Source of the DNA: a virus
Taxonomy: Duplodnaviria; Caudoviricetes
DNA: 64,000 nucleotides
Reading direction: 5' to 3' (one strand)
IMG/VR virus record: IMGVR_UViG_3300031949_000031
Location: 312 to 64,311 of that record
Part shown: one piece after another, positions 721 through 64,000 of the stretch
How positions within the stretch are numbered: the first letter of the stretch is position 1
How the letters are laid out: every line of letters begins with the position of its first letter
Notes under the pieces: generated by a model
Seen by the model: only the letters and a program-made list of their open reading frames with translations
What the model was told of the DNA's origin: nothing
Databases searched by the model: none
Position numbers and translations under genes: made by a program

Positions 721-838
721 GAAACCTATGGGGGGGGATAATAGGGGGGGGAAGGGAAGGGGGAGTGTCAGAGAGAGAAAACTTACGAAACTTGCATACC
801 GTTCAAGTAAGTGATTGCCAAAAGTCGAAAACAGTCGC

Positions 839-45221: not shown

Positions 45222-45223
45222 CC

Positions 45224-47397: not shown

Positions 47398-48351
47398 ATG
47401 GTTCTGACGCCCGAACCCGGTATTTACCCAGGTGTTCCGTCTTCGGAATACCAGCAATGGTGCGCCGTGAACGACTCATTCTTGAGCATCCTCATCAATC
47501 GCTCCCCGGCCCACGCCAAGGCGTACAAGGAGCAACCGCAGGAGCCCACAGAGGCCCTGATTGTCGGTAACGCCCTGCACACGCGGGTATTGGAGCCTTC
47601 GCTGTTTCCCTCTCGCTATGCCGTGCGGCCCGTCTGTGACCGGAGAACTAAAGAGGGCAAGGCGATGTATGAAGGCTTTGCCGAAACGCTGGACGACCGG
47701 CAGGAATTGACGGATGAGCAAGTCGCCAAGATCAATCGTATGGCCCTGTCGCTCGAACAGCACAGCTTCCATCGGTACATCGAGCAGGGCCAGTTTGAGG
47801 TCTGTATCGTTTGGCGGGACCGCAAGACAGACTTGCTGTGCAAGGCCCGGCTGGACTACTGGCAGGAGGCCCTCAGCGTGATCGTGGACCTCAAAACCTG
47901 CCGGGACGCCTCATTTGACGCCTTCGGGCTTGCCGTGTATCGCTATCAGTACTACCAGAAGGCGGCCTGGTATTGCGACGGCCTAAAGACGTTGACGAAG
48001 GGCTCTCCATCCTTTGTCTTTATGGCCCTGGAGAAAGAGCCTCCGTATGCCTGCGCCGCCTATCAACTCGCCGACGATGCGATTGTCGGCGGGCGCAAGG
48101 CGTACCGCAGGGCATTGAGCATCTATCAGGAATGTGTAGCAACGAATTACTGGCCCGGATACTCCGACCGCATTGAAATACTCACGTTGCCCGAATGGGC
48201 GATGAACCGGTTAGGGGTCGGCCAATACAATCTAATCCGGGAGGACGAACAAAATGAGCAAAACGATGAACCCCAAGACAAACAATTCAGCAGTGGAACC
48301 ATCGACACCGATTGGGACGAGCTTGAGCGTGACGCGCGCCAGTCCGACTGA
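47398..48351 (+). CDS. RecE/exonuclease VIII-like PD-(D/E)xK nuclease
   Basis: GNALHTRVLEP, CKARLD, IVDLKT, Y..KAAWY, EKEPPY. Confidence 0.9.
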   Translation: MVLTPEPGIYPGVPSSEYQQWCAVNDSFLSILINRSPAHAKAYKEQPQEPTEALIVGNALHTRVLEPSLFPSRYAVRPVCDRRTKEGKAMYEGFAETLDDRQELTDEQVAKINRMALSLEQHSFHRYIEQGQFEVCIVWRDRKTDLLCKARLDYWQEALSVIVDLKTCRDASFDAFGLAVYRYQYYQKAAWYCDGLKTLTKGSPSFVFMALEKEPPYACAAYQLADDAIVGGRKAYRRALSIYQECVATNYWPGYSDRIEILTLPEWAMNRLGVGQYNLIREDEQNEQNDEPQDKQFSSGTIDTDWDELERDARQSD

Positions 48352-49147
48352 GCCGGTGACGCCAAACCAGCTTTTGGTTTTGGCGGTCGAGGCCAAGGCG
48401 GACCCCGCTCAGCTCGAAAAGCTCATGGAATTGCAGTTTCGGTGGGAGGCCAATCAGGCCAAGAAGGCTTACGTCGAAGCCATGTCGAAGTTCCGTTCTC
48501 AGTGTCCTGAGATCGACAAGGGCAAGCAGGTCGATTTTACGACGAGCAAGGGGCGAACCAATTACAAATACCCCGGTCTGTCGGAGTCCATCAACGCGAT
48601 TAAGATGCTGCTTAGCGAGTGCGGCCTGTCCCATTCGTGGAAGACCCGCCAAACGGAGGCGGCTATCCACGTGACCTGCATCGTGACGCATATCCTGGGA
48701 CACAGCGAGGAAACCACGTTGAGCGCACCATCGGACACGACCGGCAACAAAAACATGATCCAGGCCATCGGCTCGACCGTGTCCTATCTGGAACGCTATA
48801 CCCTATTTGCCCTGCTGGGCCTGGCACCGAAGGATATGGACAACGACGGAGGCAACGGCAACGGCGACAACACGGCGAAAACACAGAAGCAGCTCATTGA
48901 AACCCTGATTGACGACGCTTGGAAACTCTACGCCGTTAGACACCAAGCGGTACTATCGCCGGGTTTTAGCGTCGATCCCGCGAAGTTCAAAAATGAGCTG
49001 CGCGCGCAATACAAGACCCTTCCCGAGAACGAACGTAATCTCTTTCGCTGGACAAAAGAACACGTTGAAAAGCTCGCCGGACAAATCAACGTCAATACGG
49101 TGATAACCAAGGAGGGGCGCAATGGCACACGAACAGAGGGACAATAG
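48254..49147 (+). CDS. ERF-family single-strand annealing protein
   Basis: QAIGSTVSYLERYTL..LLGL...D.DG. Confidence 0.9.
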   Translation: MSKTMNPKTNNSAVEPSTPIGTSLSVTRASPTEPVTPNQLLVLAVEAKADPAQLEKLMELQFRWEANQAKKAYVEAMSKFRSQCPEIDKGKQVDFTTSKGRTNYKYPGLSESINAIKMLLSECGLSHSWKTRQTEAAIHVTCIVTHILGHSEETTLSAPSDTTGNKNMIQAIGSTVSYLERYTLFALLGLAPKDMDNDGGNGNGDNTAKTQKQLIETLIDDAWKLYAVRHQAVLSPGFSVDPAKFKNELRAQYKTLPENERNLFRWTKEHVEKLAGQINVNTVITKEGRNGTRTEGQ

Positions 49148-49367
49148 CGGCGTTCTGTTCCAGAACCGTAAGCGCACCAGCGACAAGGCCCCGTCGATGC
49201 GCGGTCATGGCCAGCCAGTCTGCCCGCATTGCGGAGCCGTCGCAGAGTTGTGGATTTCGGCCTGGACAAAGGACGGCGAAGGCGGCAAGTTCCTGTCGCT
49301 GAGTTTCCAACCGAAAGAAAAAAAGACCGTGCAACAGAAAATTGACCAAGCGAACGATCCGTTTTGA
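49122..49367 (+). CDS. Small ssDNA-binding protein-like
   Basis: GVLF.N, WISAW, GKFLSLS, terminal DPF. Confidence 0.7.
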   Translation: MAHEQRDNSGVLFQNRKRTSDKAPSMRGHGQPVCPHCGAVAELWISAWTKDGEGGKFLSLSFQPKEKKTVQQKIDQANDPF

Positions 49368-49834
49368 CGCCCTTGGACCGGCGGCGGTAAAGTTTGCGGT
49401 GCGCTCGCGTGACAGAAGCCGCTATAGGTAATAGCGAGACCGTCGCCGGTCTTTTTGAAACGAAAGGAGAAAAATCAGATGAGTGAGTTAGACAGGTACA
49501 AAGAAGCACAACGCGGGCATGAACAGATGTGCGAGATCATCAATGAATGCAAGCCACTAATTGCGAGTGTTTCGACGCACCGCGCGGGACATCACGTCGA
49601 GTTTCAATTTCGCTTCGAGGGCGGTACGCCATACCATTCGCGCCTTGGCGAAATGCTCGGCAAGGCGTGCGGAGTCAAGCTCCAGGAATTGGTCGAGACG
49701 GCACGGCTGATAAGCGCAGCCGATCTCGCCGCTCTGGCCCAGGCCGCCCAGGATGAGGCCGTCGAGACGCTGAAAACCATCACAGTAGAGAAGGACTAAC
49801 CGCTTGCCCGCCTTTTGACAAGTTAGGAGCAACC

Positions 49835-50851
49835 ATGAATGAGAAGATAGAACAGGCGATTGAACAACTGCGAATACGCAAGGAAATCAAGAGCCAACTA
49901 TGTCAAGAGGATTGTGTTGAAGAGGCTCTTGCCCTTCTGGAATCCTGCAAGGCCGAGCCTGCCGCCGAGCCGACACTTACATGGGACAAGCCTCTAAGCT
50001 CAGATCAAGCAGTTAAGTACTTCCTCACAAATGGTTTTGTCGCTGTGGAATTGTATCGGGCACAGATCAAACGCCTCGACGCCCAGCAGAAGGAAAACGA
50101 GAGGCTGACCTCCGAAATCAAGGAACTCAAAGAGCGTAACGCAAATCTTTGGTCGGTCAATAACATATTCCAGAAAGCAAGAAATGATGCTGAAAGTGCC
50201 CTGGAAACCGAAAAAGAACACAGTGGAACTATCGGTAGAGCAAATGAAGCGTTAACGAAAGAGATTGACCGCCTGACCGCCGAGAACAAGGCCCAGGCCG
50301 AGCGGATTGCAGAATTGGTAACTGAAAACGAAATGCGGATAAACGACCAAGTGAAATCACTGAAGGAGGCGAAACGGGATTGTGAGCAATGGTCTGATAT
50401 ATCCGACAAGAAAGATAAGCGGATTGAGAAGCTGGAAAACTTCATTCTCGATGAACCAGAGGCGACAAATGTTAAAGGGATAGCAGCCATGAATGAGAAG
50501 ATAGAACAGGCGATTGAACAACTGCGAATACGCAAGGAAATCAAGAGCCAACTATGTCAAGAGGATTGTGTTGAAGAGGCTCTTGCCCTTCTGGAATCCT
50601 GCAAGGCCGAGCCTGCCGCCGAGCCGGGGGAATTTACAAAGCATATTCGGGATATTCTAAACTCTCACGCCCTCTATGAAGCCTGTTGCCGTAAGCAGAT
50701 TGACCGCCTGACCGCCGAGAACACTAAGCTGAAAGAGCGGATTGAGAAGCTGGAGATCGCTTTGGAAGAGATCAAGCAGATTGCTCGAACGGCATCCCGC
50801 CACGAGATATTCGGGATTGCAAACGAGGCCCTCGGCAAGGAGAAAACATGA
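49835..50851 (+). CDS. Coiled-coil protein with internal duplication
   Basis: 46-aa N-terminus repeated exactly. Confidence 0.7.
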   Translation: MNEKIEQAIEQLRIRKEIKSQLCQEDCVEEALALLESCKAEPAAEPTLTWDKPLSSDQAVKYFLTNGFVAVELYRAQIKRLDAQQKENERLTSEIKELKERNANLWSVNNIFQKARNDAESALETEKEHSGTIGRANEALTKEIDRLTAENKAQAERIAELVTENEMRINDQVKSLKEAKRDCEQWSDISDKKDKRIEKLENFILDEPEATNVKGIAAMNEKIEQAIEQLRIRKEIKSQLCQEDCVEEALALLESCKAEPAAEPGEFTKHIRDILNSHALYEACCRKQIDRLTAENTKLKERIEKLEIALEEIKQIARTASRHEIFGIANEALGKEKT

Positions 50852-52847
50852 GCAAATACCATCAAAGCACAGATTACAAGCAGGTCATTTACGACGAAGA
50901 GGGCTTGATAATATGCAGTTGCCGAGACAATAAGCGGGCGGCTGAGGTCTGCCAAATTCTGAATGCCCACGACGCATTGAAAGAGCAGGTCGAGAAGCTC
51001 AAGCGGGAGCTTCTGGAACGGGGTGGACATGGTTCGGGTTGCGCGAAAGAATCTGCGCATTCCCACGAAGAGCAGCAAACTCCTTGTACCTGCGGCTGGC
51101 AGGCCCGGCGGGAGAAGCTGGAAGAGGAACTCAAGAAAGGGGAATAACTATGGGCTACAAGACAAGAAAAGACCAAGTAGATGATTTCATTCGACGGGCC
51201 AAGTTGCCTCTCAAAACGAAAGCCGAGAAAGCCCGATTTCAAGAGGCCATGCGAGACGCTTGCATGGTCGGCGCGTGCGAAGAGCGCCATCGAAATCTCA
51301 AAATCATTTGCGAGTATATCCCCGTCCCAATGCGGACCAAAACGATAGATGAGATTACCAAGAAGTCCGTGCTTAAAGTGCTCGGCTTCGAGGATGGCGG
51401 CGATTGATGGCAAAGGAACAAGACAAATTATTCCCGTACTGGCACGAACTAATGCGATACATTTATGGCGAGCGTGACCGGACAAAAAAGCTTCAGCGAA
51501 AACTTCTCGTTGCGGCCAAACGGTTCCTGCCGGAATATACTTTCACATGGTGGGGTGGTATTCCCTTCTTCAAAGCTCCCTATGGTGATTATGTATGGCA
51601 TTTTTGCGTTTGTATGAAGCAGGAGCAAATCTGGAATTATCCTGAATTCAAGCAAGGTTATCGGTTCGGGTTACATCCTAAAGAGCCATACCGTGACGCG
51701 AATCCTTACGAGGAGCCGTCCAGGGCCGCAAGTTGGGATTATGGATATATCTGGGGTCTTTACAAAGGGAAAAGCTGCAAAGCCCAAAAAAGATTCCGAG
51801 AAGATAAAGGGCTGAAATGATGGCACGAGGACGCGCCTTTGTCTGCTGGTTGGACCATGACAGCAAGCCTAACGAGATTGCACTGCATCAGGGTGACACA
51901 GTATGGTTCCGTCTCAAAAAGCACTGGTGGAAGGCTGTATTCCGCTGTCTCAAAGGCAAGTACGTAGCCGAGACACATGGACGCAGGTTTTGTGTGTACT
52001 TTTGCTGGGATTTGAAACCGTTTATTGAAGGGCCGAAATGATGGCGACGAAAAACACAGCAACCAAACCGTGCCGACACAAAAAAGGCCTGGTCTTTATG
52101 CACGCCGATGACGTGACTTTCACGCCGGACCAGGAACCTTACGAATCCGGTAAAATCGAAAGTAGCGGCCTCGAATCCGTGTGGGCCGGTTTTGTAACGG
52201 CCTTTTACTGCAAAAAGTGTAAGCGGCTTGTGGGCATCGACGTGGACCCCTCTGATATTTCTGAAAGTGTAATCTGATGGCAACAAAAATCCCTTACGTC
52301 TTAGAGATTGAACGTCTCAGGGCCGAAATACGGGCCGTCAGAGGGATGAGTGTGTGGCAATATGAGCCAAGAAGATGAATTACGAGAGGCTTTGAAGTCC
52401 ATGTGCCGCCAGTTCGCGTTTTGGCGCGACGGTTGCGGATTGTGGACGGGCGGTCTATCTGCGTTAGAGGACGCATTTAGCGTATTGGGATGGTCTGACC
52501 CGTATCCCTGCCCTGGAGTACAGTGTGATGAGCCGGGTTGTGGTAAGCAAGGGACGTGTGGATTTCCCGCACCAAAGACAGAGGTGCATCCGAAAGGTTA
52601 TCGCCGAACGTGCAGCGAACATTATAAGTCTGAGGGCAAGCCAAACGGCTGACCATTTTGTCCGCGCGCGCAAAATGGTCCGTGTAAGGAGCAAGGAGTA
52701 TGGAGGCACTATGGCTGGATATACACCGCTGTTTAGCAGCACAGGTAAAAGGAATTTTTTGAAAATAAGCCTTGACGGGCCGCCAGCGGAAGGGCAGATT
52801 GTGAGTTATGGTGATTGAGCAAGTACATTCAACTTGACCGTGATACC

Positions 52848-52906
52848 GGCTGCCGGGAGAACACGCCGCGTGCTCGCTCCTCACCAGACCCGGCAGCCCT
52901 TTTTTG
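52848..52906 (+). terminator. Hairpin + T tract upstream of replication initiator
   Basis: GGCTGCCGGG/CCCGGCAGCC + T tract. Confidence 0.6.
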
Positions 52907-52929
52907 CTTTTGAAGCACGGAGGCTTGCT

Positions 52930-53919
52930 ATGGCAGGGTTTACGAAGCTCTTTTCAAGCATCATAACCTCAAGCATTTGGTCTGAAGATGACAAAACAAG
53001 AATCATGTGGATCACAATGCTCGCAATATCAGACGCCAATGGGCATGTTTCCGGGGCCGTTCCGGGGATGGCGGCGATAGCTCGAATGAGCCTTAAAGAG
53101 GCCGAAAAAGCCATTATTAACCTTTGCAAGGCCGATCCATATTCCCGCAGCAAAGATAAGCAAGGTACTCGGCTTATTGTGGCTGACGGCGGCTGGGACA
53201 TTGTGAATTATCGCAAATACCGAGCCACACGAGACCCTGAAATCAGACGTGAACAGAACCGAAAAGCTCAGGAAAAGTACCGAAGTAAGCAAAAAGTAAG
53301 CCAAAATAAGCCACAATCAGCCCAGGCAGAGGCAGAAGCAGAAGCAGAAGCAATAGAAGAAGAAGTAAAAGAAGAAGAAACGACAACAACACCCCCCGAT
53401 GGGCAACGGACAACGGACAATGGGGATGGGGATGGGGATGGGGAACCAGGATGTCAACACACCGTCAACGTACCGTCAACGGGGGGTCAGACTAAACTAC
53501 AAGAAGTGTCAACGTCAACATCATCTTCGCCCAAAGAAACCAAATCCCACAAAGGCAGTCCAGCCGACAGAATCCTTTCCGCTTGGCAGAAGCTCCCCCT
53601 GCCGCCCGAGAAGAAACAATTCGCCGCCGCCGACATCCTCGCCATCGAGCGGGCCATCTCGATTTTGGCCGGCGATTCTCAGGAACCCGTCCACTATGGT
53701 ATGATTTTGGAGGCCATCAAGAACTACCACCAAGCCCTTTCCCTCTCTGACAGCCAGACCTACAAGCACAAGCTTCACCCCTGGCTGATGGAGCATGTTC
53801 GCAAGTATGTCTCGTACAATTTCGATATAGATCACCACCGGGGCAGTAAATACCAGAAGACAGGCAAGACCGATACGATGGCCGAAATGGAGCGATTGAA
53901 AGCGAAAGGCGAGTTATGA
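52930..53919 (+). CDS. Phage replication initiator / replisome organiser
   Basis: FTKLFSSI..SSIW, GGWDIVNY.KYR, AEAEAEAEA linker encoded by GCAGAA repeats. Confidence 0.8.
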   Translation: MAGFTKLFSSIITSSIWSEDDKTRIMWITMLAISDANGHVSGAVPGMAAIARMSLKEAEKAIINLCKADPYSRSKDKQGTRLIVADGGWDIVNYRKYRATRDPEIRREQNRKAQEKYRSKQKVSQNKPQSAQAEAEAEAEAIEEEVKEEETTTTPPDGQRTTDNGDGDGDGEPGCQHTVNVPSTGGQTKLQEVSTSTSSSPKETKSHKGSPADRILSAWQKLPLPPEKKQFAAADILAIERAISILAGDSQEPVHYGMILEAIKNYHQALSLSDSQTYKHKLHPWLMEHVRKYVSYNFDIDHHRGSKYQKTGKTDTMAEMERLKAKGEL

Positions 53920-54344
53920 CCGATCTGCAAGCCCACGAAATCATCGATGACTGCATCAAAGCCCATTGGCCGGCCTGGGACTTCAAAGGGCGGGAGTTGG
54001 CTGTTTGGGTCGAAGAGCTCCGCAAGTTCGACTTCCACGCCGCCCGGGACGGCATAGATGCGTGCTACCGCGACTGGGACGGCAAGCAGTACCCACGCAT
54101 GAAGAGCATCTTGCGCTACATCCGCACGAGGGCCAAGAGCCGAGTCCAGGCGTCAGGCATCCGCGAACATTACAAAATTTGTCGGGCGGATGGCCGTTTG
54201 CGATGGCGACCGTTCTGGGGGTTGTCCAACGTGCCCCAGCAAGACATCGAGGAAGACGCAATGGCGAAATTGGAGCGGGCCAATATCATCGAACCCGGTC
54301 ATTATATCGTTTGGCCGACGCGAGAAGCCAATGTGCCGTTCTGA
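53916..54344 (+). CDS. Helicase loader/inhibitor-like protein
   Basis: Coupled to the initiator; W...L....F......YP pattern. Confidence 0.55.
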   Translation: MTDLQAHEIIDDCIKAHWPAWDFKGRELAVWVEELRKFDFHAARDGIDACYRDWDGKQYPRMKSILRYIRTRAKSRVQASGIREHYKICRADGRLRWRPFWGLSNVPQQDIEEDAMAKLERANIIEPGHYIVWPTREANVPF

Positions 54345-54468
54345 GATTTGTAGCACGATGAAGCCAAACGAAACTACGCACTCGCACGCGCGCGAGGGGC
54401 CCACGCAGGGCACAGGCGGACAAAACGAAATGAGACTTTTGGGACACAGTAAAAAAGGCGGTGACAAC

Positions 54469-55308
54469 ATGAGCGATATTATCCGCGTCTTTGTGAGGCG
54501 GACCAGTATGACGCCGACGGACGATCTGGTGGTCGTGGGTGAGCCGCCCCTATTCGTCTTGCCGGACTTGCCCATTCATGTATCCGTTGTCTTCAGTTGG
54601 GATATCGACCGTGCAGATGAGTTAGCTACGGTGTGGGCGGCGGTCTATGGAGTTGATCGGGTATCGCTCGGGGGGCCTGCCCTGAGCGACTTGAGACAGA
54701 CGGGCGATCCGGATGGCCCTTTCGTCCCAGGCCGCTATATCAAGGCCGGTGTGACGTTTACTTCGCGCGGCTGTGCTAAGAACTGCCCGTGGTGTTCAGT
54801 ACAAAAGCGAGAAGGCGCATTACGAGAGATCAACATCGCCCCAGGCTGGATCGTCCAAGACAACAACCTCTTGGCGTGCTCACGCGGGCACGTTGAGCGA
54901 GTCTTCGATATGCTTCGTCAGCAGAAGAAAGGGATCATCTTTTCGGGCGGATTGGACATCGACTATCTGCAACCCTGGCACATGGAGCTGCTCAAGAGTA
55001 TCAAGGTCGATGCGTTGTGGGTGGCCTGCGACTGCGAGCAAGATTTAGAGCGGCTCGATAAGGCGAAGGATCTGCTGGGCGATTTCCCCATCGAGAAGAA
55101 ACGTTGCTACGTGATGATCGGTTTCGGCGGAGAGACATTCGATGAAGCTGAGCGGAGATGTGAAGCAGTCTATGCCAAAGGATTCCTGCCCTTCGCGCAA
55201 CTTTATCGAGGTATCCACGCCGAGCCGTGGGGTCCATGCTGGCGGGCGTTGCATCGCAAGTGGTCTCGCCCGGCAGCGTACCGAGCCAGAAAGGAGTTGA
55301 TGAAGTGA
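54469..55308 (+). CDS. Radical SAM protein
   Basis: TSRGCAKNCPWC, DNNLLA, GGP. Confidence 0.8.
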   Translation: MSDIIRVFVRRTSMTPTDDLVVVGEPPLFVLPDLPIHVSVVFSWDIDRADELATVWAAVYGVDRVSLGGPALSDLRQTGDPDGPFVPGRYIKAGVTFTSRGCAKNCPWCSVQKREGALREINIAPGWIVQDNNLLACSRGHVERVFDMLRQQKKGIIFSGGLDIDYLQPWHMELLKSIKVDALWVACDCEQDLERLDKAKDLLGDFPIEKKRCYVMIGFGGETFDEAERRCEAVYAKGFLPFAQLYRGIHAEPWGPCWRALHRKWSRPAAYRARKELMK

Positions 55309-55745
55309 GAATCATAGGAATTGACCCAGGGCAATCGGGCGGAGCGGCGATGATAGGCGATGATGGTGAGGTGTTGGGCGTCGAGGTGTTCAAAAATGCC
55401 ACCGAGCACGATCTGGCCGAACTATTGCGGGAGTGGCGGGATTACGGCGAGGACAAGCCGTTCGCCTACATTGAGAGCGTTCACGCCATGCCGAAGCAGG
55501 GGGTATCGAGCACCTTCAAATTCGGCCAGCATTACGGCTCGCTGCTGATGGGCCTGGCGTGCCTTGAGATTCCCTACGAGCGAGTGGCCCCGGGGGTGTG
55601 GCAGCGGGCGATGGGTTGCCTGACGGGCGGCGAAAAGAACATCTCGAAGGCCAAGGCGCAGCAGTTGTTCCCGGCACTGAAGATCACACATGCAATCGCC
55701 GACGCACTGCTGATAGCAGAATATGGTCGGCGCATGAGAAAATGA
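55305..55745 (+). CDS. RuvC-like Holliday junction resolvase
   Basis: IIGIDPG, IESV, STFKFG, ADALLIA. Confidence 0.9.
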   Translation: MRIIGIDPGQSGGAAMIGDDGEVLGVEVFKNATEHDLAELLREWRDYGEDKPFAYIESVHAMPKQGVSSTFKFGQHYGSLLMGLACLEIPYERVAPGVWQRAMGCLTGGEKNISKAKAQQLFPALKITHAIADALLIAEYGRRMRK

Positions 55746-55774
55746 AACTCTAAATGAACGAAAGGACGTGACAC

Positions 55775-56161
55775 ATGGCAACAAAGACCAAAGAACAACC
55801 AGCAATCAAGACGACGCACGAAACCCGGACGCTCAAATGCAAACTGACGGACGAGGAAATTAGGGAGGCCTCGGACTGTTTGGCGCGGACGCTCGATGAG
55901 CTCGAAATGCTCGAAGATGAGCAGCAGAAGATCAAGAGCGACTTCAAAGCGCAGATCGAGGCCAAAGAAGCGGCGACCCGCGTGCAGAAAAACCTCGTGC
56001 GTGACAAGTACGCCCATAGGCAGGTGCGGTGCACAATGACGATGAACTACAGCACGCTCAAGGTCATCGTGGCGCGAGATGACACCGGCGAGATCATCAC
56101 TGAGAGAGCCATGAACGAGGATGAGAAGCAATTGAAGATCGACTTCGACTCGGAGGAATAG
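55775..56161 (+). CDS. Hypothetical coiled-coil protein
   Basis: Good RBS; operon packing. Confidence 0.7.
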   Translation: MATKTKEQPAIKTTHETRTLKCKLTDEEIREASDCLARTLDELEMLEDEQQKIKSDFKAQIEAKEAATRVQKNLVRDKYAHRQVRCTMTMNYSTLKVIVARDDTGEIITERAMNEDEKQLKIDFDSEE

Positions 56162-56166
56162 CATCT

Positions 56167-56403
56167 ATGCCCAAGATAAAAACAAATGTCACCAAGTGGC
56201 TGCCGGCCAAGGGCCAATGGTTCCATGTGCGCCTCAAGCGCAACAATCACCTGCATACAGCGGGGCCGTTCAAGTGCAGCGAGGCAGTCTCTTACGGCGA
56301 CTACGTGCAACAGATCGAGGCCGTGGATAGTGAGGGCGACCGCTGGCACTTTCCGCTGTCGGAGTTTCGATTCGAGTTGGCAGAAACGCAGAAAAAGACA
56401 TGA
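56167..56403 (+). CDS. Hypothetical protein
   Basis: GGAGG RBS. Confidence 0.65.
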   Translation: MPKIKTNVTKWLPAKGQWFHVRLKRNNHLHTAGPFKCSEAVSYGDYVQQIEAVDSEGDRWHFPLSEFRFELAETQKKT

Positions 56404-56444
56404 CTCGACTCGACAAGATAAGCCTTTTTTGAAAGGAGCACAAG

Positions 56445-57023
56445 ATGTATGAAATCAACGCAACGTACAAAGGTTTAGTACCGATGATGATGGACCGATT
56501 TGCCGACCCTTCCCAAACGGAGAGACCATCGAAGAAAAAGGCAAAAGGGCGCAATGAAGCGGAGATTCTCGCCAAACTGCACATGGACAAAAAAGGGGTT
56601 TTTGTTCCTTCCGACAATATCCGCATGATGCTAATTGGCAACAAGCATCGTCGCGGGGCAGCACAGATTTTAGGTTCAGACATGGAAGCGGCCAAAGGGA
56701 CGAAATATCTATCGATTTGCAAGGGGTTGATTTGGGTTTTGGGGACCGACGACCCGATGAAAGTTTATATCGAGCCTCGTCGGAAAACGTATGACGACGT
56801 GGATGAGCGGTCGTTCCTCAACGCTACAGGCTCACGTTCTATGGCGTATCGGCCTATCATCAAGTTGCCCTGGTCGGTGTCTTTCATTATCCAGGTCACG
56901 GACGACAATATCGACCAGAGCTTCGTCCGGCAGTTGTTCGACGTGGCGGGCCTGCGGTGCGGAGTCTGCGCCTACGGCCCGACGTTTGGCCGGTGCATTA
57001 TCTCGGAGTGGAAACAACGCTAA
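56445..57023 (+). CDS. Stand-alone RAMP/Cas7-like RNA-binding protein
   Basis: N-terminal strand + G..P (TYKGLVP), VFVPSDNIR (cf. IPGSSLKG), C-terminal Gly loop AGLRCGVCAYGPTFGR. Confidence 0.65.
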   Translation: MYEINATYKGLVPMMMDRFADPSQTERPSKKKAKGRNEAEILAKLHMDKKGVFVPSDNIRMMLIGNKHRRGAAQILGSDMEAAKGTKYLSICKGLIWVLGTDDPMKVYIEPRRKTYDDVDERSFLNATGSRSMAYRPIIKLPWSVSFIIQVTDDNIDQSFVRQLFDVAGLRCGVCAYGPTFGRCIISEWKQR

Positions 57024-57025
57024 TC

Positions 57026-57627
57026 GAAACGAGCAGATATGAGCTGAACAGAGCCGACCAGAGCAGAGCAGAACGCCATCGGAGCCGATGGGAACGGAAT
57101 CGATTTGAGCAGAGCAGAACCGAGCAGAGCACCAACAGAGGAAACATGAGACGAAGGGAACAGAGTGGACCCGAGACGATATGAGACGATTCGAACAGAA
57201 TCGAACGGAACGCCACTGGAGCGGACGAGATACGAGGTGAGGCGATTCGAACAGAGCCGAACAGAACACAAGGGGACGGGACCAGAAAAGACCAGAACCG
57301 AACAGAACGCTATTTGATTTGAAGGGAAGTGACCCGAAAAGACAAGATGTGATGGGAATTGACTTGACCAGAGAAGAACACAAGGAGAAAAGAAAAGATC
57401 AGAGTCGAGTTGAGCGGGAAAGAATAGAGAAAAATAGAACGCAAGAGGAATCAAGAAGAGCCGATTGGAAAGGAGGGGAGCTGAGGTGACATGAGCAGAA
57501 TAGAACGCGAATCACCAGAAGAACTGAGCAGAAGTGAGCAGAACTGAGTAGGAAAGAAGCGATCAGAACCGAACGCCAAGGGATCGGAATAGAGCGGAAA
57601 CAAAAAGACCAAAACAGAAAGGAACAC
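57026..57627 (+). repeat. GA-NNN pentamer array, 10 units, putative guide RNAs
   Basis: Parsed by hand: GA recurs every 5 nt; units end in GAACGC, GAACAC or GAGCAC. Confidence 0.9.
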
Positions 57628-57630
57628 AAG

Positions 57631-57909
57631 ATGAACATGGAAATCACAGAAGCCAGAGCAGCACAATTTGACAAACTCGAAAATCAGGCATGCGTATTGT
57701 TGCAGGAGTACCTTGAGGGCAAGCGGACGGGCGGGGACGATATTGTAACCGCCCGCTGCGTGCTCAATGTCATCCGGGGCAACCGCCAGACGACTACAGC
57801 ACGGGATGCCCTGAGATATGCGATGGTCAGCGACTTGGGCGACCCGAAGGTGCGTGAAAGATATGTGAAGGCGACCGAGCCTGAAATCAAAAAACTGCTC
57901 AAAGCATAG
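57631..57909 (+). CDS. Small protein abutting the pentamer array
   Basis: RBS AAAGGA lies inside the last array unit. Confidence 0.75.
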   Translation: MNMEITEARAAQFDKLENQACVLLQEYLEGKRTGGDDIVTARCVLNVIRGNRQTTTARDALRYAMVSDLGDPKVRERYVKATEPEIKKLLKA

Positions 57910-58038
57910 GGCCGGGCCTATCCAAGAGACAGACCGACCGCTTAGTGCCGACAGAAGGCAACGGCGGCCGTTAGCCGATGAATAGGACATGGGCGAATGG
58001 CCCTGAACAACAAGTTCAGACAGAAAGGAGAACCGAGC

Positions 58039-58230
58039 ATGGACTGGATTATTGAAAACTATGATGAGATCGTTAAGGCCATCGGGCTGATTATCGCGGC
58101 GGCCAGCATCATCGTGAGACTAACGCCTACTCAGCGCGACGATGCTTTTTGGCTGCCTGTCATAAAATTCATCGGGAAGTATATTGCTTTGAATAAATAT
58201 GGTCCTTCCAAAGATGAGCGACCTAAATAA
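58039..58230 (+). CDS. Holin-like protein
   Basis: TM segment + ASIIVRLTPT..DD motif; AAAGGAG RBS. Confidence 0.7.
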   Translation: MDWIIENYDEIVKAIGLIIAAASIIVRLTPTQRDDAFWLPVIKFIGKYIALNKYGPSKDERPK

Positions 58231-58237
58231 AATTTGG

Positions 58238-58265
58238 TTGACCATACACTAAAAGATGATATACT
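58238..58265 (+). promoter_or_regulatory. Promoter of inserted HNH gene
   Basis: TTGACC-N16-TATACT. Confidence 0.65.
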
Positions 58266-58287
58266 TACTTCAAAAAAAGGAGCAAGT

Positions 58288-58725
58288 ATGACATCAGAAT
58301 CGCGAAAAAGAGCATGGACAAAATACAACCGTTCAGAGAAAAAAAGGCGTGCGAGTAAAAAGTACTATGAAGCACACAAAGAAGCATGTCTTAGATATTC
58401 AATTGAGTGGCAAAAGAGAAATCGAGAACATGTCAGAGCATTGGAGCGAAAAAGAAATCATACTGCAAAAGGAAGGCAAATTCGCAGAGCCATAGAAAAA
58501 CGTTATTGTGAGAAAAATCGCATCAAAAGATTAGCTAAGGATGCTGTTCATAATGCGATTAGGGCAGGAAAACTCAAAAAGTTACCTTGCGTTATCTGTG
58601 GATGCAAGACTGTTGAAGCACACCATCCTGACTATACAAAACCATTAAAGGTTATGTGGGTGTGTAAAAAGGATCATAAGATTATCCACAAATACGGGAC
58701 CAACGAAGTCGAGAGGCCGAAATGA
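58288..58725 (+). CDS. HNH endonuclease (AT-rich insert)
   Basis: AIRAGKL...PCVICG....AHHPDY..PL.V.WVC..DH...H. Confidence 0.85.
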   Translation: MTSESRKRAWTKYNRSEKKRRASKKYYEAHKEACLRYSIEWQKRNREHVRALERKRNHTAKGRQIRRAIEKRYCEKNRIKRLAKDAVHNAIRAGKLKKLPCVICGCKTVEAHHPDYTKPLKVMWVCKKDHKIIHKYGTNEVERPK

Positions 58726-58873
58726 TCTGCGACAAGTGCGGAAAGCCGATGCGCGTGTATTTGGTCCGGCATAACTTCCCGTGGGAAAAGCGCAAGACAG
58801 AAAAATGGTGCTGCCGGTGTGCGGGATTGGGTGCACTTTTCGCGCGGCGAGAAGAAAAAAAGAAGGTGGTCGA

Positions 58874-59206
58874 ATGAACCTGGGCGTCTGGGCGACAATC
58901 ACAACGTTGCTTCTGAAGTTCCTATGCTTGTTCCGGGGCCGGGGCTACCGGGCCGATGTGACTATCAAGAGCGAGGCGGCTATCGAGGCCGACCGCAAGA
59001 GGCTCGACGCCTTATTCACCAAACTCAAGGAGAAACGCGATGCGATCAAGACCAAAACCAAGCAGGATTGCAAGGCTCGCAAGAACAAGCTGTATCGCTA
59101 TGCTGATGAGTCTATTCTGCCTGAGCTTCTACGGTTGCAACGCGAGTATCGAGACCTCCGACGGGACTTCGTCGCCGCAGGGGGACATCTCCCTCCAGGC
59201 TGGTGA
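58874..59206 (+). CDS. i-spanin-like protein
   Basis: N-terminal TM segment + coiled coil, downstream of holin. Confidence 0.55.
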   Translation: MNLGVWATITTLLLKFLCLFRGRGYRADVTIKSEAAIEADRKRLDALFTKLKEKRDAIKTKTKQDCKARKNKLYRYADESILPELLRLQREYRDLRRDFVAAGGHLPPGW

Positions 59207-59288
59207 AGCGTCGCCGATAGACGGGATGGTAGTTCCGTTCGAGCATTATCAACACATGCGAATCTGTGAGGCATTGTGCGATGACTGA
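59040..59288 (+). CDS. o-spanin-like lipoprotein overlapping the i-spanin
   Basis: Hydrophobic stretch ending in lipobox-like SFYGC, shifted frame. Confidence 0.55.
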   Translation: MRSRPKPSRIARLARTSCIAMLMSLFCLSFYGCNASIETSDGTSSPQGDISLQAGEASPIDGMVVPFEHYQHMRICEALCDD

Positions 59289-59464
59289 GTTGAGAGGGCC
59301 GAGACATGACTGATGATTAACTGGCTCCGAGAATGCTGGGAGCGGGTGCCGAACGGCTGGAAGATGATTCAAGCTTTCCTCATCTTTGTCTTAGCGATAA
59401 TCTATGTGGATTTTCGGTGGGGGCAAAGGAAAAACAGGAAACCCTAATTTTGAAAGGAACCAAG

Positions 59465-60004
59465 ATGAACACAAAATGGGTACAACTGATGGCCTGCGTG
59501 CTGGTGCTGTGTGGCTCAGCGTTCGCGGGCGAACCGAACGAGCCGGTCATTCCGGCGGAACAGGGCCTGACGATCTGGGGCCTGACCGAAGGCGATTCGT
59601 CGAGCACGCTCGAAGCGCGTATCGGCTTGGAACTGGAGAACAGCTTCGAGCCGGGTATCGGGGTCAAGTATTTTACGGGCGATCCTGAGTGGGGGCCTGA
59701 GCCTGACGCTGTCTCGGCGTACCTGGCCTACCACGTCCGCGAGATTGGTCTGATTACCGACGACACCCCGGACAACGCATGGGAAGAGATTCTGCACAGC
59801 CTCAAGACGCGGCCCTATGCCTTGCTGGAAGTGGCCGTTCCTGTGGACGGGGAGCAGCGAAGGCCCAAATTGAACTACGCTATCGGCACCCTGTTCGGGA
59901 ACGACCCGTCGTTCAAGACGGCTTTCGTGGTCGAGTGGATTGTGGGCGATCTGGCAGGTGAGTATGACCACGCCATCCGAATCGGCGGACGGTTCAGGTT
60001 TTGA
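59465..60004 (+). CDS. Outer-membrane beta-barrel-like protein
   Basis: Signal peptide (..GSAFA), amphipathic strands, C-terminal IRIGGRFRF. Confidence 0.65.
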   Translation: MNTKWVQLMACVLVLCGSAFAGEPNEPVIPAEQGLTIWGLTEGDSSSTLEARIGLELENSFEPGIGVKYFTGDPEWGPEPDAVSAYLAYHVREIGLITDDTPDNAWEEILHSLKTRPYALLEVAVPVDGEQRRPKLNYAIGTLFGNDPSFKTAFVVEWIVGDLAGEYDHAIRIGGRFRF

Positions 60005-60251
60005 GAAACAGATGAGTGAAGAAGAACGTATCCGGCGCAAAATCCGTCGCCGCCTCAACAAATTGTGGCTGGACGGCTATCTGAGTTGCGGTCTGAACCG
60101 TCAGCTTAGCAACATTGAAGAGGCTATGTGGCAGATATGGCCGAAACGGAAACGGGCGAGGTAAGCCTGAGTCCTCCTCCGGAGTCCCCTCACCCTGGAA
60201 TGGAGTCTGGGGCGGGGGCTGTTTTGAAACCTTTAGAGAAAGGAAATCAAA

Positions 60252-60536
60252 ATGACTATGACAGGAAACATCGGTGCAAAAGCTGAACAGCCGTATTACA
60301 GTGAAGCCCTGGAGAAACTCTCTGTTTTGGCGGACGAGATTGGCAAACAACTGGGCGAACTGGAGAATAGAATCAGTGTAGTTTCGTCCCCCGATGGGGC
60401 TGTCCCTCAGTCAGAAGCCCAAAAAGAAACACGCGGTCCTATCTCCTCGTTGGACGAAAGGCTGTCTTGTCTGGTTGGGCAATTCACTGTTCGTCGAAAC
60501 GACTTAGGCATGATTCTACGCCGGATTCAACTGTAA
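60252..60536 (+). CDS. Hypothetical coiled-coil protein
   Basis: AAAGGA RBS. Confidence 0.6.
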   Translation: MTMTGNIGAKAEQPYYSEALEKLSVLADEIGKQLGELENRISVVSSPDGAVPQSEAQKETRGPISSLDERLSCLVGQFTVRRNDLGMILRRIQL

Positions 60537-60794
60537 CTTTGAAGGGACTCCCCCGGTCCCGGGCATGGACGCTTGTGTAGAACGGGGCCGGGGATTTTGA
60601 ACTATGGCCTCATCGTACCTATGGACGGGAACGAGGTTTGTGGCAACGTGGCACTACCGCGTCGATACGTATCGTCAGGACATCGACATTGCCAAAGACC
60701 CGCAAGTGCTCGCCGAGCGAGTGGCCTATGAGGCACGCCGGCACAATGGGTTGCCGGTGGAACGCGAGAGGGTTTGGTTTGAGGATAACTGAGC

Positions 60795-61061
60795 ATGAGG
60801 ACATCGAAAGCATATTTCAATCGCTTCAAGAAAGAGTTTGTGCGATGGCAGCAGTTGCTCGGGCTGACGCAGTATCGGATTGATTTCTTCCACGAGAAAC
60901 TCGAACATAGCTATGCGCAAATTACTGTTCGACAACTTGAAAAAGCGGCTCGTGTAAGTCTCAGTACTGAAATCAGCGAGGATTCAGCGGCCGTGGATGA
61001 AGGGCCGGAATCGAGCGCTCGCCATGAGGTTCTACACCTGTTGCTCGACCGCTTATGGTAG
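60795..61061 (+). CDS. Small HExxH metallopeptidase-like protein, possibly prematurely terminated
   Basis: WQQLLGL, ARHEVLHLLL. Confidence 0.55.
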   Translation: MRTSKAYFNRFKKEFVRWQQLLGLTQYRIDFFHEKLEHSYAQITVRQLEKAARVSLSTEISEDSAAVDEGPESSARHEVLHLLLDRLW

Positions 61062-61144
61062 CTGGGAGTTTCACGGTATATCGAGGGGAACGATCTTCAG
61101 GAAGAAGTTGAAGCCATTGTGGTTCGCTTGGAAAAGGTATTGAA

Positions 61145-61513
61145 ATGATTGTGATTGTTGACGACATACGAGAGCGAGTGACTATACTCGGTTTTACCTC
61201 GACGCAATTCCTGCAACTGTCGGCGATCATTCGGCTGGCGAGGATTCGCGGCAGTGCCCAGGTGCGTCGAGTGGCGGCGGGGTTGAACCTCTTCGTGCCG
61301 CGCATCTACGACAGCGAGACCGGCATGGCGGCGGTTATGCAGTTGACGTGGGAAGACGTGTTCGGCCTCAACTATGTGATGATGTGGCTGCTGGACCTGC
61401 TGTCGCAACCGCACGAACGCCTTATCGCCGACGAGATTGTCGAGACTATCGACGCGGCGATTGAGAGCGTGATTCATTTGGACCAGCTCCGGGACAGATA
61501 CTTGCCGGGATGA
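61145..61513 (+). CDS. Hypothetical protein
   Basis: ORF in operon. Confidence 0.55.
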   Translation: MIVIVDDIRERVTILGFTSTQFLQLSAIIRLARIRGSAQVRRVAAGLNLFVPRIYDSETGMAAVMQLTWEDVFGLNYVMMWLLDLLSQPHERLIADEIVETIDAAIESVIHLDQLRDRYLPG

Positions 61514-61519
61514 ACACCT

Positions 61520-62203
61520 ATGAATCAGGAAGACTTTGAAAAGGAGTTCGTAGGCAAAATCCATTGCGCAGATTGTTTGGAGCTTATGAGGGACTGGCCC
61601 GACGGCTGCGTGGATTTAGTGCTGACCGACCCGCCGTATGGGATAGACTTTGGAAAAGCCGGAGGCTTTTGCGCGTCTCACGGTTGGGGGCCGTGGAGAG
61701 AGAATGTCGAGTGGGACATTGAGCGGCCACCAAAAGCCGCGTTTGACTTGATGTTACGTCTTGGCAAGCACCAGATCATCTGGGGCGGCAATTATTTCAC
61801 CGATTATCTTCCACGAACAATGCGATGGCTTGTTTGGGATAAGGGACAAAGAGAGTTTTCGTTGGCGGACTGTGAGTTTGCTTGGAATGATGAATGGAAA
61901 GCGTCCAGAATTTTCAATTATCCACGCGGTTGCGCTCTCAAGGATGGCAAGCAACATCCAACGCAAAAACCTTTGGCTTTAATGGAATGGTGTTTGGATT
62001 TTTACCCGGATGCTGCAGTAATTCTTGACTGCTATTCTGGCGTAGGCACAACCTGCGTCGCCGCCAAGAAGTTAGGCCGTCGGTTCATCGGGATAGACAT
62101 TTCGCCGGAGTATTGCAAGATTGCCCGCGAGCGCCTTGAGGCTTGTGATACAGGTGTGCCGGTCAAAGAGGCAAGAAAAGGACAAGGAGCGTTATTCGTC
62201 TAA
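61520..62203 (+). CDS. DNA N6-adenine/N4-cytosine methyltransferase (beta class)
   Basis: TDPPYG, HPTQKP, D.YSGVGTT. Confidence 0.93.
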   Translation: MNQEDFEKEFVGKIHCADCLELMRDWPDGCVDLVLTDPPYGIDFGKAGGFCASHGWGPWRENVEWDIERPPKAAFDLMLRLGKHQIIWGGNYFTDYLPRTMRWLVWDKGQREFSLADCEFAWNDEWKASRIFNYPRGCALKDGKQHPTQKPLALMEWCLDFYPDAAVILDCYSGVGTTCVAAKKLGRRFIGIDISPEYCKIARERLEACDTGVPVKEARKGQGALFV

Positions 62204-62550
62204 TGCCAATTCTTACGAAGTCCGAACTCGAACGCATCAAGCGCCAGGCCCGCTGCGAGGGCAGGCGCGAGGGCCGGCGCCGCTCCCAGAAGCTCATCAA
62301 CCAGCTCAGTGGGGCGATGGCCGAGGTCAACAGTCTGCTCGGCGAGATCGACTTCGAGTGGCCGCGCACCGGTGTCACCATCAGCTTTGCGATGGCGGAC
62401 AGGATTATCGCGGCGCTCAAGCCCTCGGCGACGCAAAAGGCCCGCACGCGGCTGGCCGGTGAGCTGCGGCGCATGGTCATGGATTCGACCTGCGAGCTGG
62501 GCATGGACCTGGCCCGCGTCGAGAATGAGATGAGAGAATTGATAGGGTAA
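62203..62550 (+). CDS. Hypothetical protein
   Basis: TAATG coupling to the methyltransferase. Confidence 0.6.
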   Translation: MPILTKSELERIKRQARCEGRREGRRRSQKLINQLSGAMAEVNSLLGEIDFEWPRTGVTISFAMADRIIAALKPSATQKARTRLAGELRRMVMDSTCELGMDLARVENEMRELIG

Positions 62551-62571
62551 GGTCGTGGCCATTCAAGTCTT

Positions 62572-62790
62572 TCACCCCTGTGCGGAGGGCGATTGAGAAT
62601 GGGTGAATTCGATCTTGCCGTTCAATTCGACGAGCAGGCATTGCAGGTAATCCGCCGTGAGCGCCCGCTTGCCGGCGAAATAGTCGTAGAGCGTTTGAGG
62701 GTGACATTCGATTCGACGAGCCATCGCCGGGGTGCTGATCTTGCGGCGGGCCATCTCTTTTTTGATCTGTTTGCGTAAATCAACTTTCAC
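62572..62790 (-). CDS. XRE/Cro-like HTH protein, last gene of the minus-strand operon
   Basis: ISTPAMARRIECHPQTLYDYFAGK. Confidence 0.85.
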   Translation of the reverse strand: MKVDLRKQIKKEMARRKISTPAMARRIECHPQTLYDYFAGKRALTADYLQCLLVELNGKIEFTHSQSPSAQG

Positions 62791-62861
62791 GGATTAAGTT
62801 CCTTTCAAAATCCCGCCCCCGGCACGCGCCAAGGGGCGGGGTTAAAAATGCTCAGTATGGT

Positions 62862-63185
62862 TTACGGCTCGGCCAGGGCGATAGCGGCCTTTACAATTTC
62901 TGCACACTCGTCTAACGCTTTTTTCCGAGCCTCCAATTTCGGGGCTTCGTCACGCACCCATTTTTTGGTCGGTGGACCTTGATACGCACAGGCTTCGAGA
63001 GGCCCGGCACACATAAACGCCATCGACGATATTTTTTTGCACGCTTCCAGCAGGGCGTCGTGAGATTTGATCGCTCGGATGATATACGCATAATCAATTT
63101 CACGGTCAGGCAAATCGCTTGCCTCGATACTTAACAGCATAAGGCCAAAATGGGGAGGCCATTTGACGGGTGTTTCCATGTTCAT
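62862..63185 (-). CDS. Small early protein (cassette array)
   Basis: METP start; HDALLEACK and AIALAEP. Confidence 0.75.
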   Translation of the reverse strand: MNMETPVKWPPHFGLMLLSIEASDLPDREIDYAYIIRAIKSHDALLEACKKISSMAFMCAGPLEACAYQGPPTKKWVRDEAPKLEARKKALDECAEIVKAAIALAEP

Positions 63186-63463
63186 TCTCCTTTGGGCTCG
63201 GCCAGGGCGATAGCTTGCTGCACCATGACGTTGAGTTCGTCCGAGCCACCCTTCACGTTTTGTAATTCGATATCTTGATAAACAGCCTTCAATGCTTTGA
63301 GTTGCATAGATTCTTCGTTAATATTCCCCGCTATCGCGGTCGCTAAAGCCTCATGGGCCTCTTGGTCTTTATTCGTCCAGCGTCCCCGCGTTAAGGCTCG
63401 CCGTTGAGAATTAGCGTAGGCCAGTTTGCACGCGGTAAGCAAATTTATCTGTTTCGTTTCCAT
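63182..63463 (-). CDS. Small early protein (cassette array)
   Basis: METK start; LLTACK and AIALAEP. Confidence 0.75.
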   Translation of the reverse strand: METKQINLLTACKLAYANSQRRALTRGRWTNKDQEAHEALATAIAGNINEESMQLKALKAVYQDIELQNVKGGSDELNVMVQQAIALAEPKGE

Positions 63464-63510
63464 GTCATTCTCCTTTTAAGCGGTTACGGATTGTAACCGA
63501 TTCAAAAAGC

Positions 63511-63720
63511 TCAATCATCGTCAAATTCATCCATCGCGTCCGTCACGGCCATATCCCTGAGTACCTGGTCAGTGGCCTCTTCTGAGTCGTCATGTGCGAC
63601 CGGGCGGGTGTCGGCGTATCGTTCCGCCAAGCATTTGGGGCACTTCCAGCCCAAGCCTGTCCGCCATTGCATATCGACCTTGTGAGTTTCGCACGTCGGA
63701 ACGATTCGTTCAGTTTCCAT
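63511..63720 (-). CDS. Small acidic Zn-finger-like early protein (cassette array)
   Basis: METE start; CxxH...CxxC; acidic tail. Confidence 0.75.
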   Translation of the reverse strand: METERIVPTCETHKVDMQWRTGLGWKCPKCLAERYADTRPVAHDDSEEATDQVLRDMAVTDAMDEFDDD

Positions 63721-64000
63721 TTTTAACCCTTTCGATTTGCCCTCGCGGGCGACCCTATTGAGTTGTTCAAACTACTAATCTATATATACGGTTATATTAG
63801 ATTGTTGTCAACAGCTTTTTTGGAGATTTCGTAAAAATATCTGCAAAGCTCGGATTCCAACTCAGAAACGCGGATTTCAGCGAAAGATTTCTTGTAAGAT
63901 TTTTTACGCTGTGTTAGCGTTTAAGTGATTTTGTCCTGATTGCCGATATTGGGGGCATGGCTAAAAAGAAATGTGAAACTGAAACTGAGGACCTGACGGG
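63713..64000. repeat. Imperfect direct repeat, right copy (matches 477-720); contains minus-strand promoter 63783-63811
   Basis: Direct alignment by eye. Confidence 0.95.

Follow-up and report, generated by a model that had tools for sequence, protein, structure and literature searches.

Organization of the locus

The right end of the 64,000-nucleotide stretch of viral DNA analysed here (the window; bases 312–64311 of the 64,311-base IMG/VR record IMGVR_UViG_3300031949_000031, which IMG/VR rates as complete and classes as linear) carries a compact operon of small genes that ends in a gene for a helix-turn-helix (HTH) protein. The operon is ~1.25 kb long, reads against the rest of the genome, and lies between the replication and DNA-modification genes and the packaging genes. 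A previous reading of the sequence (the original prediction) had proposed a promoter with a dyad followed by three small open reading frames (ORFs) and a terminal HTH gene, and this architecture is borne out, with the operon on the minus strand from 63811 to 62572. From the promoter to the HTH gene the features are as follows (SD, Shine-Dalgarno sequence).

63806–63811, minus strand: −35 hexamer TTGACA, within the 11-bp palindrome TGTTGACAACA (63803–63813); position kept in 6 of 6 aligned promoters
63783–63788, minus strand: −10 hexamer TATATA, 17 nt from the −35 and part of a CGTATA core
63777–63803, no strand assigned: dyad AATCTA-N15-TAGATT flanking the −10, candidate operator
63721–63782, minus strand: 5′ leader, with a hairpin GCCC-GCGA-GGGC (63739–63750) and the SD AAAGGG (63727–63732)
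63511–63720, minus strand: ORF1, 69 residues; CxxH...CxxC zinc ribbon and an acidic tail ending EFDDD; pI 4.4
63464–63510, minus strand: linker H; stop codon, UUUUUGAA, hairpin with a 7-bp stem (63481–63499), SD AAGGAG and start codon; −14.1 kcal/mol, z −3.6
63182–63463, minus strand: ORF2, 93 residues; C-terminus AIALAEPKGE, the last codons containing the SD of ORF3
62862–63179, minus strand: ORF3, 105 residues from the MET start (107 from 63185); member of a mosaic family with LLEACKKI and AIALAE motifs
62791–62861, minus strand: linker T; stop codon, GAGCAUUUUUAA, G+C hairpin (62812–62841), AUUUUGAAAGGAAC and the GTG start of the HTH gene; −29 kcal/mol, z −3.4
62572–62790, minus strand: Cro/XRE-type HTH gene, 72 residues, pI 9.7, GTG start

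The small genes ahead of the HTH gene, which we call cassettes, share a MET start as had been proposed, and the SD followed by ATGGAAAC occurs five times in the window, in each case at a cassette start. Read with the in-frame MN extension, the start would be 1 nt away from the SD, and because of this spacing we favour the MET codon as the real start.

Two alleles of a single locus

The first 1,031 bases of the record are an imperfect repeat of its right end. In the window this second copy contains the following.

1–720, minus strand: second (left) allele, with promoter and leader at 474–629, cassette A at 203–484 (93 residues), and linkers T and H at 111–202
108, minus strand: start of cassette B, 127 residues, which runs on into contig bases 36–419 of L002

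The promoter, leader and linkers of the left and right copies are 94–99% identical (the promoter and leader segment 63709–63866 matches 474–629 at 93.7%), and the gene content is different: the left copy encodes cassette A and cassette B, the C-terminal 71 residues of the latter being 89% identical to ORF3. The 64.3-kb metagenomic virus contig is one turn around a ~63-kb circular or circularly permuted genome, that of a soil phage not in culture. Because it goes once round, its ends are two variants and not two loci, namely two population haplotypes of a single locus that were joined by the assembler. The original prediction, which had placed an array at each end of the window, is superseded on this point by the repeat in the record together with the contigs and the relative described next.

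The record begins within a repeated linker and ends immediately ahead of a run of G, both typical assembly break points. In a close relative, G001 (64,140 bases; 28 matching pieces of 80–100% identity over window positions 44000–63900), there is one copy of the locus, at an internal position and joined directly to the packaging genes. Of six public sequencing runs listed, none of them an RNA run, four were compared with the window. Contigs of run X2 have the left-allele letters at 62954, 62973, 62988 and 63023, together with the left joints and the start of cassette A, and do not cover 63096–63431 and 63516–63683, which are the parts specific to the right allele. Contigs of run X3 carry the arrangement of L010, one of the relatives described below, and across runs X1 to X3 contigs end or branch at 62508–62550, 62850 and 63465–63510, i.e. 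at linkers. In run X1 the mean word depth is 56 for a short contig with the HTH gene and 6.9 for the contig with ORF2 and ORF3, a contrast compatible with the right-allele cassettes being a minority allele, to be discounted in that contig depths are rough and X1 is possibly the source sample and hence not independent.

A different reading of the ends is that the genome is linear and that they are its genuine terminal repeat, somewhat diverged, such that each virion carries two arrays, and the contig itself does bear both ends and is classed as linear. However, terminal repeats copied at packaging are normally identical, whereas here the common parts differ by 1–6% and the genes differ; with only the left allele in X2, a single internal locus in G001, and assembly breaks at both contig ends, we regard this as very improbable. 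We give almost no weight to an assembly artefact, in which reads from different phages would have been misjoined to produce the repeated blocks and chimeric ORFs. The contig is indeed over-extended across two haplotypes, but the same linkers and arrangements are present in independent records of other samples (G001/L010, L015, L023, L037, L011, X2 and X3).

Cassette turnover among relatives

Five more versions of the locus (L010, L011, L015, L023 and L037) came from searches with the HTH protein, the linkers and the leader. All of them have the same −35, CGTATA core and SD, with the HTH gene after two or three small genes. The HTH proteins of L010, L011 and L015 are 94%, 53% and 31% identical, respectively, to that of the window. 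Across the seven haplotypes there are 17 cassette slots, which are occupied by 13 families (BLASTP, E 1e-3), and only three families recur: ORF3 with cassette B and L010_c3, ORF1 with L010_c2, and L023_c1 with L037_c1. As 13 families fill 17 slots in seven haplotypes, the content of the locus is not invariant among relatives, and the recombinational shuffling at reused blocks that had been predicted is supported, since the breakpoints fall in those blocks.

The turnover is seen at several scales. Haplotypes that are 94–99% identical at the flanks differ in cassette content, with breakpoints in the linkers both in the blastn comparisons and at the contig joints. L023 and L037 have a common cassette 1 (97% identical) and a common HTH gene, and their second cassettes are unrelated. 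ORF1 and its L010 copy are 83% identical, and the 12 differing residues are all among the first 21, the last 48 being identical. In the ORF3 family, different N-terminal, middle and C-terminal parts are combined in ORF3, cassette B and L010_c3. The locus thus has a conserved frame and a variable payload, with its exchange points in the linkers.

The ribosome-binding-site (RBS) plus start pattern is present at four loci in IMG/VR, two of which (L020 and L021) are unrelated phages with only the ribosome-site string; the linker pattern in metagenome contigs is present at three, of which one duplicates L015, L023 is a new relative, and L024 is a chance or unrelated match. The P0006 search in IMG/VR gave only an unrelated phage, an exact search of IMG/VR with 35 bases of the leader gave no match (the relative has one inserted A), and blastn of 62200–64000 against 50,697 isolated phage records gave none.

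Two sites outside the cassettes also vary. There is a second variable spot between a 115-residue gene and the HTH gene (window 62508–62572; L010 5322–5996), where L010 has an extra 224-residue ORF of no known family and an X1 contig diverges after 62550 into a different gene start. The small-terminase ORFs (window 815–2660; L010 1275–3298) have only the first ~20 residues in common, and the 501-residue ORF at the terminase position in L010 was not found in a search with the large terminase subunit of the window; it appears that the packaging module was exchanged, the joint lying inside the small-terminase gene.

Linkers

The reused blocks that had been listed previously are all present at their places, by reading of the sequence and by blastn. 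The RBS and start block 63172–63193 matches 101–122 at 22/22 bases; 63452–63510, which includes the RBS block and a CGGTTAC..GTAACCG hairpin (at 63481 and 127), matches 97–156 over 60 nt at 96.7%; the G+C hairpin block 62815–62854 matches 155–195 over 41 nt at 97.6%; and 62866–62885 matches 63195–63214 at 20/20 bases and encodes the common C-terminus AIALAE. The CGGTTAC..GTAACCG pattern occurs twice in the 64 kb, only here, with 0.07 expected. These blocks are the standard linkers between cassettes.

Linker T generally consists of a stop codon (often after DDD codons), GAGCAUUUUUAA, a poly-C/poly-G hairpin and UUUU(U)GAA, and the module is also present in the left allele (winL), in L010 (three times), and in L015, L023, L037 and L011. 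Linker H has its 7-bp-stem hairpin directly ahead of AAGGAG and the start codon. Between ORF1 and ORF2 of the window the terminator (T) hairpin is cleanly missing and its flanks are retained. At linker C two genes are coupled, the SD of the downstream gene being contained in the codons for the C-terminus AIALAE(P)KG(E) of the upstream one.

The linker hairpins are stable, with folding energies between −14 and −39 kcal/mol (z −3.1 to −3.95), and keep their structure: three sequence versions, from the window, L010 and L011, all fold. A MAFFT alignment of the hairpins has double changes in 2 of 10 consensus pairs; covariation is weak on this alignment because indels misalign the stems, and we therefore relied on the separate folds. 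No −35/−10 pair can be read in any linker and a scan of the operon strand found none, though that scan missed the main promoter too. Rfam models returned from 62000–64000 only RT-6, at 19.9 bits against a gathering score of 46.7, which we take as chance. In L010 a 9-codon ORF (MRKSKAYQD; 4907–4936) lies between cassette 3 and its terminator linker, and may be a remnant of a lost cassette start.

Promoter, dyad and leader

All 6 of the 6 aligned loci have the same −35, CGTATA core and SD, and at the −10 position L011 has TATAAT and L023 has TATACT. The dyad pattern, with one mismatch allowed, is found at two sites in the 64 kb, only at the two promoters, compared with 0.04 in shuffled sequence. 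Dyads with other letters are at the matching position in L011 (8-bp arms) and L023 (5-bp arms), and the leader of L015 has GCCC-GAAA-GGGC at the place equivalent to the leader hairpin.

An A/T-rich stretch lies ~20–45 nt upstream of the −35 (63840–63870; 600–629) and may act as an UP-like element or as a further operator. Within it the palindrome TTTTGCAAAA is present in the left allele, L015 and L023, and is missing from the right allele and L010.

The terminal HTH gene

The HTH gene is the last gene in all six haplotypes that have the 3′ end on the record, and its product matches Pfam PF13443 (HTH_26) at E 9.5e-5, just above the cut-off (23.0 bits against 22). The 20 nt between the hairpin and its start codon are too few to hold a separate promoter, and we infer that it is co-transcribed with the cassettes. 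A homodimer prediction scored 0.24 against a mark of 0.42.

An HTH profile found nine weak loci in 185,579 species genomes. One of the nine was inspected (L025), and the match is the C-terminal HTH of a 205-residue ORF that looks resolvase-like by eye, so no host was assigned from it. A tRNA suspected by eye beside the HTH gene of L011 was not found by ARAGORN.

Arrays of 7-nt repeats flank the operon and the HTH gene in relatives and are lineage-specific: TTGTCAA/TTGACAA in L015 (2385–2412 and 3541–3578), CACGAA/TTCGTG in L023 (~2700–2670, 1845–1815 and 1600–1570) and L037 (2245–2275 and 2958–2985), and CTCGTAT in L011 (3240–3300). The L015 and L037 HTH proteins are 78% identical despite the different flanking repeats.

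Cassette products

The cassette proteins are small and have few relatives, with homologue searches among 5.8 billion sequences returning 4, 1 and 1 clusters (one for ORF1). By computation 12 of 15 are acidic (pI 4.3–6.3), the set comprising all but the two L037 cassettes. Structural models show a zinc ribbon for ORF1 (predicted local distance difference test, pLDDT, 71) and, from AlphaFold2, a helical hairpin for ORF3 (pLDDT 62, low confidence); no fold match was found for either, the best being a PDB fold at E 0.97 for ORF1 and a viral fold at E 0.23 for ORF3. The Atlas model of ORF2 has a pLDDT of 0.53, and the first Atlas look-up hit, at 0.86 in the PF27050 cluster, is a lead only; the Atlas look-up for cassette A gave no usable hit. 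The match of ORF1 to the zinc-ribbon C-terminus of a 163-residue endonuclease (58234–58725) is not significant (E 0.71).

Near the operon is an orphan N6/N4 DNA methyltransferase gene (61520–62203), and in L015 a PAPS-reductase-domain gene follows the HTH gene. The combination of small acidic ORFans, fast turnover and DNA-modification neighbours is no more than circumstantial evidence for a counter-defence role.

A probable accessory operon with exchangeable cassettes

The explanation that we favour, with a probability of roughly 0.6, is a single accessory operon in which a constant frame of promoter, leader, linkers and HTH gene carries exchangeable ORFan cassettes, the HTH protein represses its own operon, and cassettes are exchanged by way of the linkers. 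The exchange is probably by homologous recombination between linkers, as at the PeSL elements of phage T4. In such a scheme the promoter would be fired by host RNA polymerase at entry, and the G+C hairpins with their short U-runs would act as leaky terminators or 3′ stabilisers and give abundant cassette messages. The HTH protein would be made at a lower level by read-through, the gap ahead of its gene being too short for a promoter, and would bind the dyad around the −10 and shut the operon down, as Aca proteins do. The 20–60-bp linkers would provide the homology for general recombination that swaps cassettes among co-infecting relatives, to which a PDDEXK exonuclease of the RecE/exonuclease VIII type, encoded at 47392–48351, may contribute. 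The cargo would act on the host or on rival elements, anti-defence being the leading guess.

The results that count against this explanation concern the promoter and its operator, the hairpins, the regulator, and the cassettes. The promoter of the original prediction and the hairpins are present, and consensus scans called neither the promoter nor, as terminators, the hairpins. The −10 lacks the usual final T, and reading the promoter by sigma-70 rules is an assumption about the host. The dyad has perfect arms of 6 bp, and the 21 bp between arm centres is long for a dimer of a 72-residue HTH protein; L015 keeps only a 4-bp dyad, and the palindromes TATACGTATA and TTGACAATTGTCAA elsewhere are better candidates. 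The whole leader folds no better than shuffled sequence (z −0.65). In the linkers the U-runs missed by the terminator scan are only 4–5 long, with only four U behind the hairpin between ORF3 and the HTH gene and none in the L015 copy.

As to an Aca identity of the HTH protein, phmmer and a four-sequence profile found no Aca protein at E up to 10 among all PDB chains, a comparison that covers solved structures only; such structures have reportedly been determined for Aca1, Aca2 and Aca10. The best profile relatives in the PDB are HipB (E 0.018), Ner (0.1) and HigA (~1). Two of these are antitoxins, and a higBA-type toxin-antitoxin module, with the HTH protein as the antitoxin that represses the promoter, would have the same order of a small gene first and the HTH gene second. 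The likeness to HipB and HigA is only at E 0.018 to 1.7, however. Ahead of the HTH gene the operon has two or three genes, which are unrelated and vary from haplotype to haplotype; there is no RelE/HigB or other toxin family among the scanned cassettes, and the hairpin and U-run between the last cassette and the HTH gene fit poorly with tight stoichiometric coupling. A toxin-antitoxin module is accordingly a highly improbable description of the locus.

An autorepressing HTH protein must also be set against a general early regulator or immunity protein of the Cro/CI kind, with the small genes being just the opening genes of an early operon and their variability ordinary early-region mosaicism. 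The HTH is of the Cro/C1 type and matches repressor families in PHROGs at E 5.5e-4 to 0.09, its true operators could be the lineage-specific heptamer arrays near the HTH gene of L015, L023 and L037, and in L023 a tyrosine integrase gene lies 560 nt beyond the HTH gene, so that part of the lineage is temperate. But the dyad and hairpin motifs are found nowhere else in the 64-kb genome, and no further set of operators is visible for a genome-wide switch. Moreover, no integrase family is present among the 79 window ORFs scanned, and the HTH gene is last, behind a hairpin, rather than at a divergent promoter pair. We consider a general regulator unlikely.

The anti-defence or host-takeover function in the original prediction found no backing in family assignments. 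In Pfam, PHROGs, PADLOC and NCBIfam no function-bearing family was found for any scanned cassette, the scans covering all cassettes other than L010_c2 and the two of L037. Pfam gave 0 of 13 cassette proteins above the cut-off (from the window, L002, L010, L015, L023 and L011; L015_c1 has a sub-threshold SWIM finger), PHROGs gave for the five cassettes of this contig only phrog_1273 (an unknown-function category, at 2e-5, for cassette B), and PADLOC with NCBIfam gave for 14 cassettes one weak PADLOC match at E 0.0056. Among the cassettes there is no validated anti-CRISPR or homologue in these general libraries, a dedicated anti-CRISPR (Acr) library not having been searched.

The cassettes might instead protect the infected cell or lysogen from other phages (superinfection exclusion or moron-type defence), or take over host metabolism. 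The cassette turnover and the position next to an integrase in L023 fit morons equally well, and the library scans reveal no likeness to any anti-defence protein. Set against this, no PADLOC defence family was found (1 weak match in 17 proteins), no lysogeny genes are seen in the window phage among its 79 scanned ORFs, and the cassette proteins are very small and mostly acidic; very small acidic proteins are commoner among inhibitors than among defence effectors. We regard these roles as rather improbable, and retain the accessory operon as the preferred explanation, with anti-defence as a guess at its cargo.

An extension of that explanation, which we offer as doubtful, is that the linkers are a recombinase-free, plug-and-play expression system in which the HTH protein controls the array at both a DNA dyad and an RNA hairpin. 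Cassettes would share a standard 5′ end, made of the SD and MET as the opening codons, and a standard 3′ end, made of the closing codons and a terminator hairpin, so that any ORF carried from phage to phage by short-homology recombination would arrive ready for expression and regulation. For the HTH protein, the DNA target could be the promoter dyad and the RNA target the intercistronic CGGTTAC/GTAACCG hairpin; the hairpin and the promoter spacer have the word TAACCG in common, and Aca2 exerts double control of this kind, on DNA and on RNA.

If the accessory-operon explanation is correct, the locus would be a compact natural example of a fixed expression-and-control frame with exchangeable payload in phages, one whose exchange points can be placed to within a few tens of bases and whose polymorphism shows up within individual environmental samples. 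The 13 small ORFan families from soil and sediment phages are candidates for screening for counter-defence or host takeover, and the conserved HTH and linker signature can be used to find more such arrays in metagenomes. For genome scans the locus is also a caution that an over-extended metagenomic contig can show two alleles as two loci.

Other features of the window

A homologue of PurZ-type adenylosuccinate synthetases is encoded at 43971–45221 on the plus strand (phrog_1211, 1.2e-60; Pfam Adenylsucc_synt, 1.4e-42), and 2-aminoadenine may take the place of adenine in the phage DNA. The replication region contains short repeat arrays of the GAGCAGAGC/GAACAGAAC type (57026–57518; families D1 and D2) with a period of ~10 nt and an iteron-like look. 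Between the operon promoter region and the small-terminase gene are runs of eight G and other G-rich words (727–765), and the right end of the contig stops at the place that matches these runs; the segment may serve in packaging, or may reflect no more than a break in the assembly. A 2,457-residue ORF at 32586–39959 on the plus strand has proline- and alanine-rich repeats (families D5–D8) and no PHROG family at 1e-5.

Comparison with known systems

The locus looks like an acr-aca operon because variable small genes precede a conserved terminal regulator. Aca proteins are HTH proteins that bind inverted repeats in acr promoters and repress them, and RNA motifs lie between genes of some Aca-regulated operons (PMC13551039). 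The likeness extends to a strong promoter whose core is overlapped by inverted repeats (here TGTTGACAACA at the −35 and the dyad bracketing the −10), to short, rapidly changing genes, one or a few in number, ahead of a conserved small HTH gene, and to an intergenic hairpin inside the operon as in some of the Aca-regulated operons that source describes (PMC13551039). The differences are that no cassette here is a known Acr and the HTH protein belongs to none of the Aca families compared, that a terminator-like hairpin lies ahead of the regulator gene, and that repression is inferred.

The linkers resemble the PeSL elements of T4-type phages, which consist of a stop codon, an A+T-rich stretch, a poly-C/poly-G stem-loop, and an SD and start codon (PMC2839356). 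PeSLs lie at boundaries of ORFan insertion or replacement, and homologous recombination between copies has been put forward as the mechanism (Arbiol 2010, PMC2839356; Comeau 2014, PMC4122927). The linkers here are like them in makeup and in their place at gene-replacement boundaries between close relatives. In contrast, each PeSL has its own sigma-70 early promoter, which the linkers lack by our reading and by scan; all cassettes here depend on one promoter with the regulator last, the phage is not T4-like, and the linkers extend into coding sequence (the first codons MET, and the last DDD or AIALAE-KG).

Two further arrangements are comparable. A study of phage accessory regions reportedly describes variable gene sets between conserved flanks, and variable ORFans between conserved anchors in related phages are common to both; here, in contrast, the anchors are regulatory DNA and a regulator within one operon, and the exchange points lie within tens of bases. 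The start-associated sequences of cluster K mycobacteriophages are said to be an RBS-containing motif repeated before a subset of genes, and a conserved motif of this type repeated before genes is likewise present here, but start-associated sequences are genome-wide and are not known to be tied to cassette exchange or to include a hairpin or terminator module.

Integrons also have one promoter, promoterless cassettes, and folded repeats between the cassettes, whereas the junctions here have the look of terminators and not of attC sites. An integron is excluded, with no integrase among the 79 window ORFs and with the L023 integrase being XerC/D-like (66 bits against a cut-off of 265 for the IntI model). 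Taken together, this well-delimited array, polymorphic at the population level, looks like an acr-aca layout whose payload is probably exchanged at PeSL-like, promoterless linkers.

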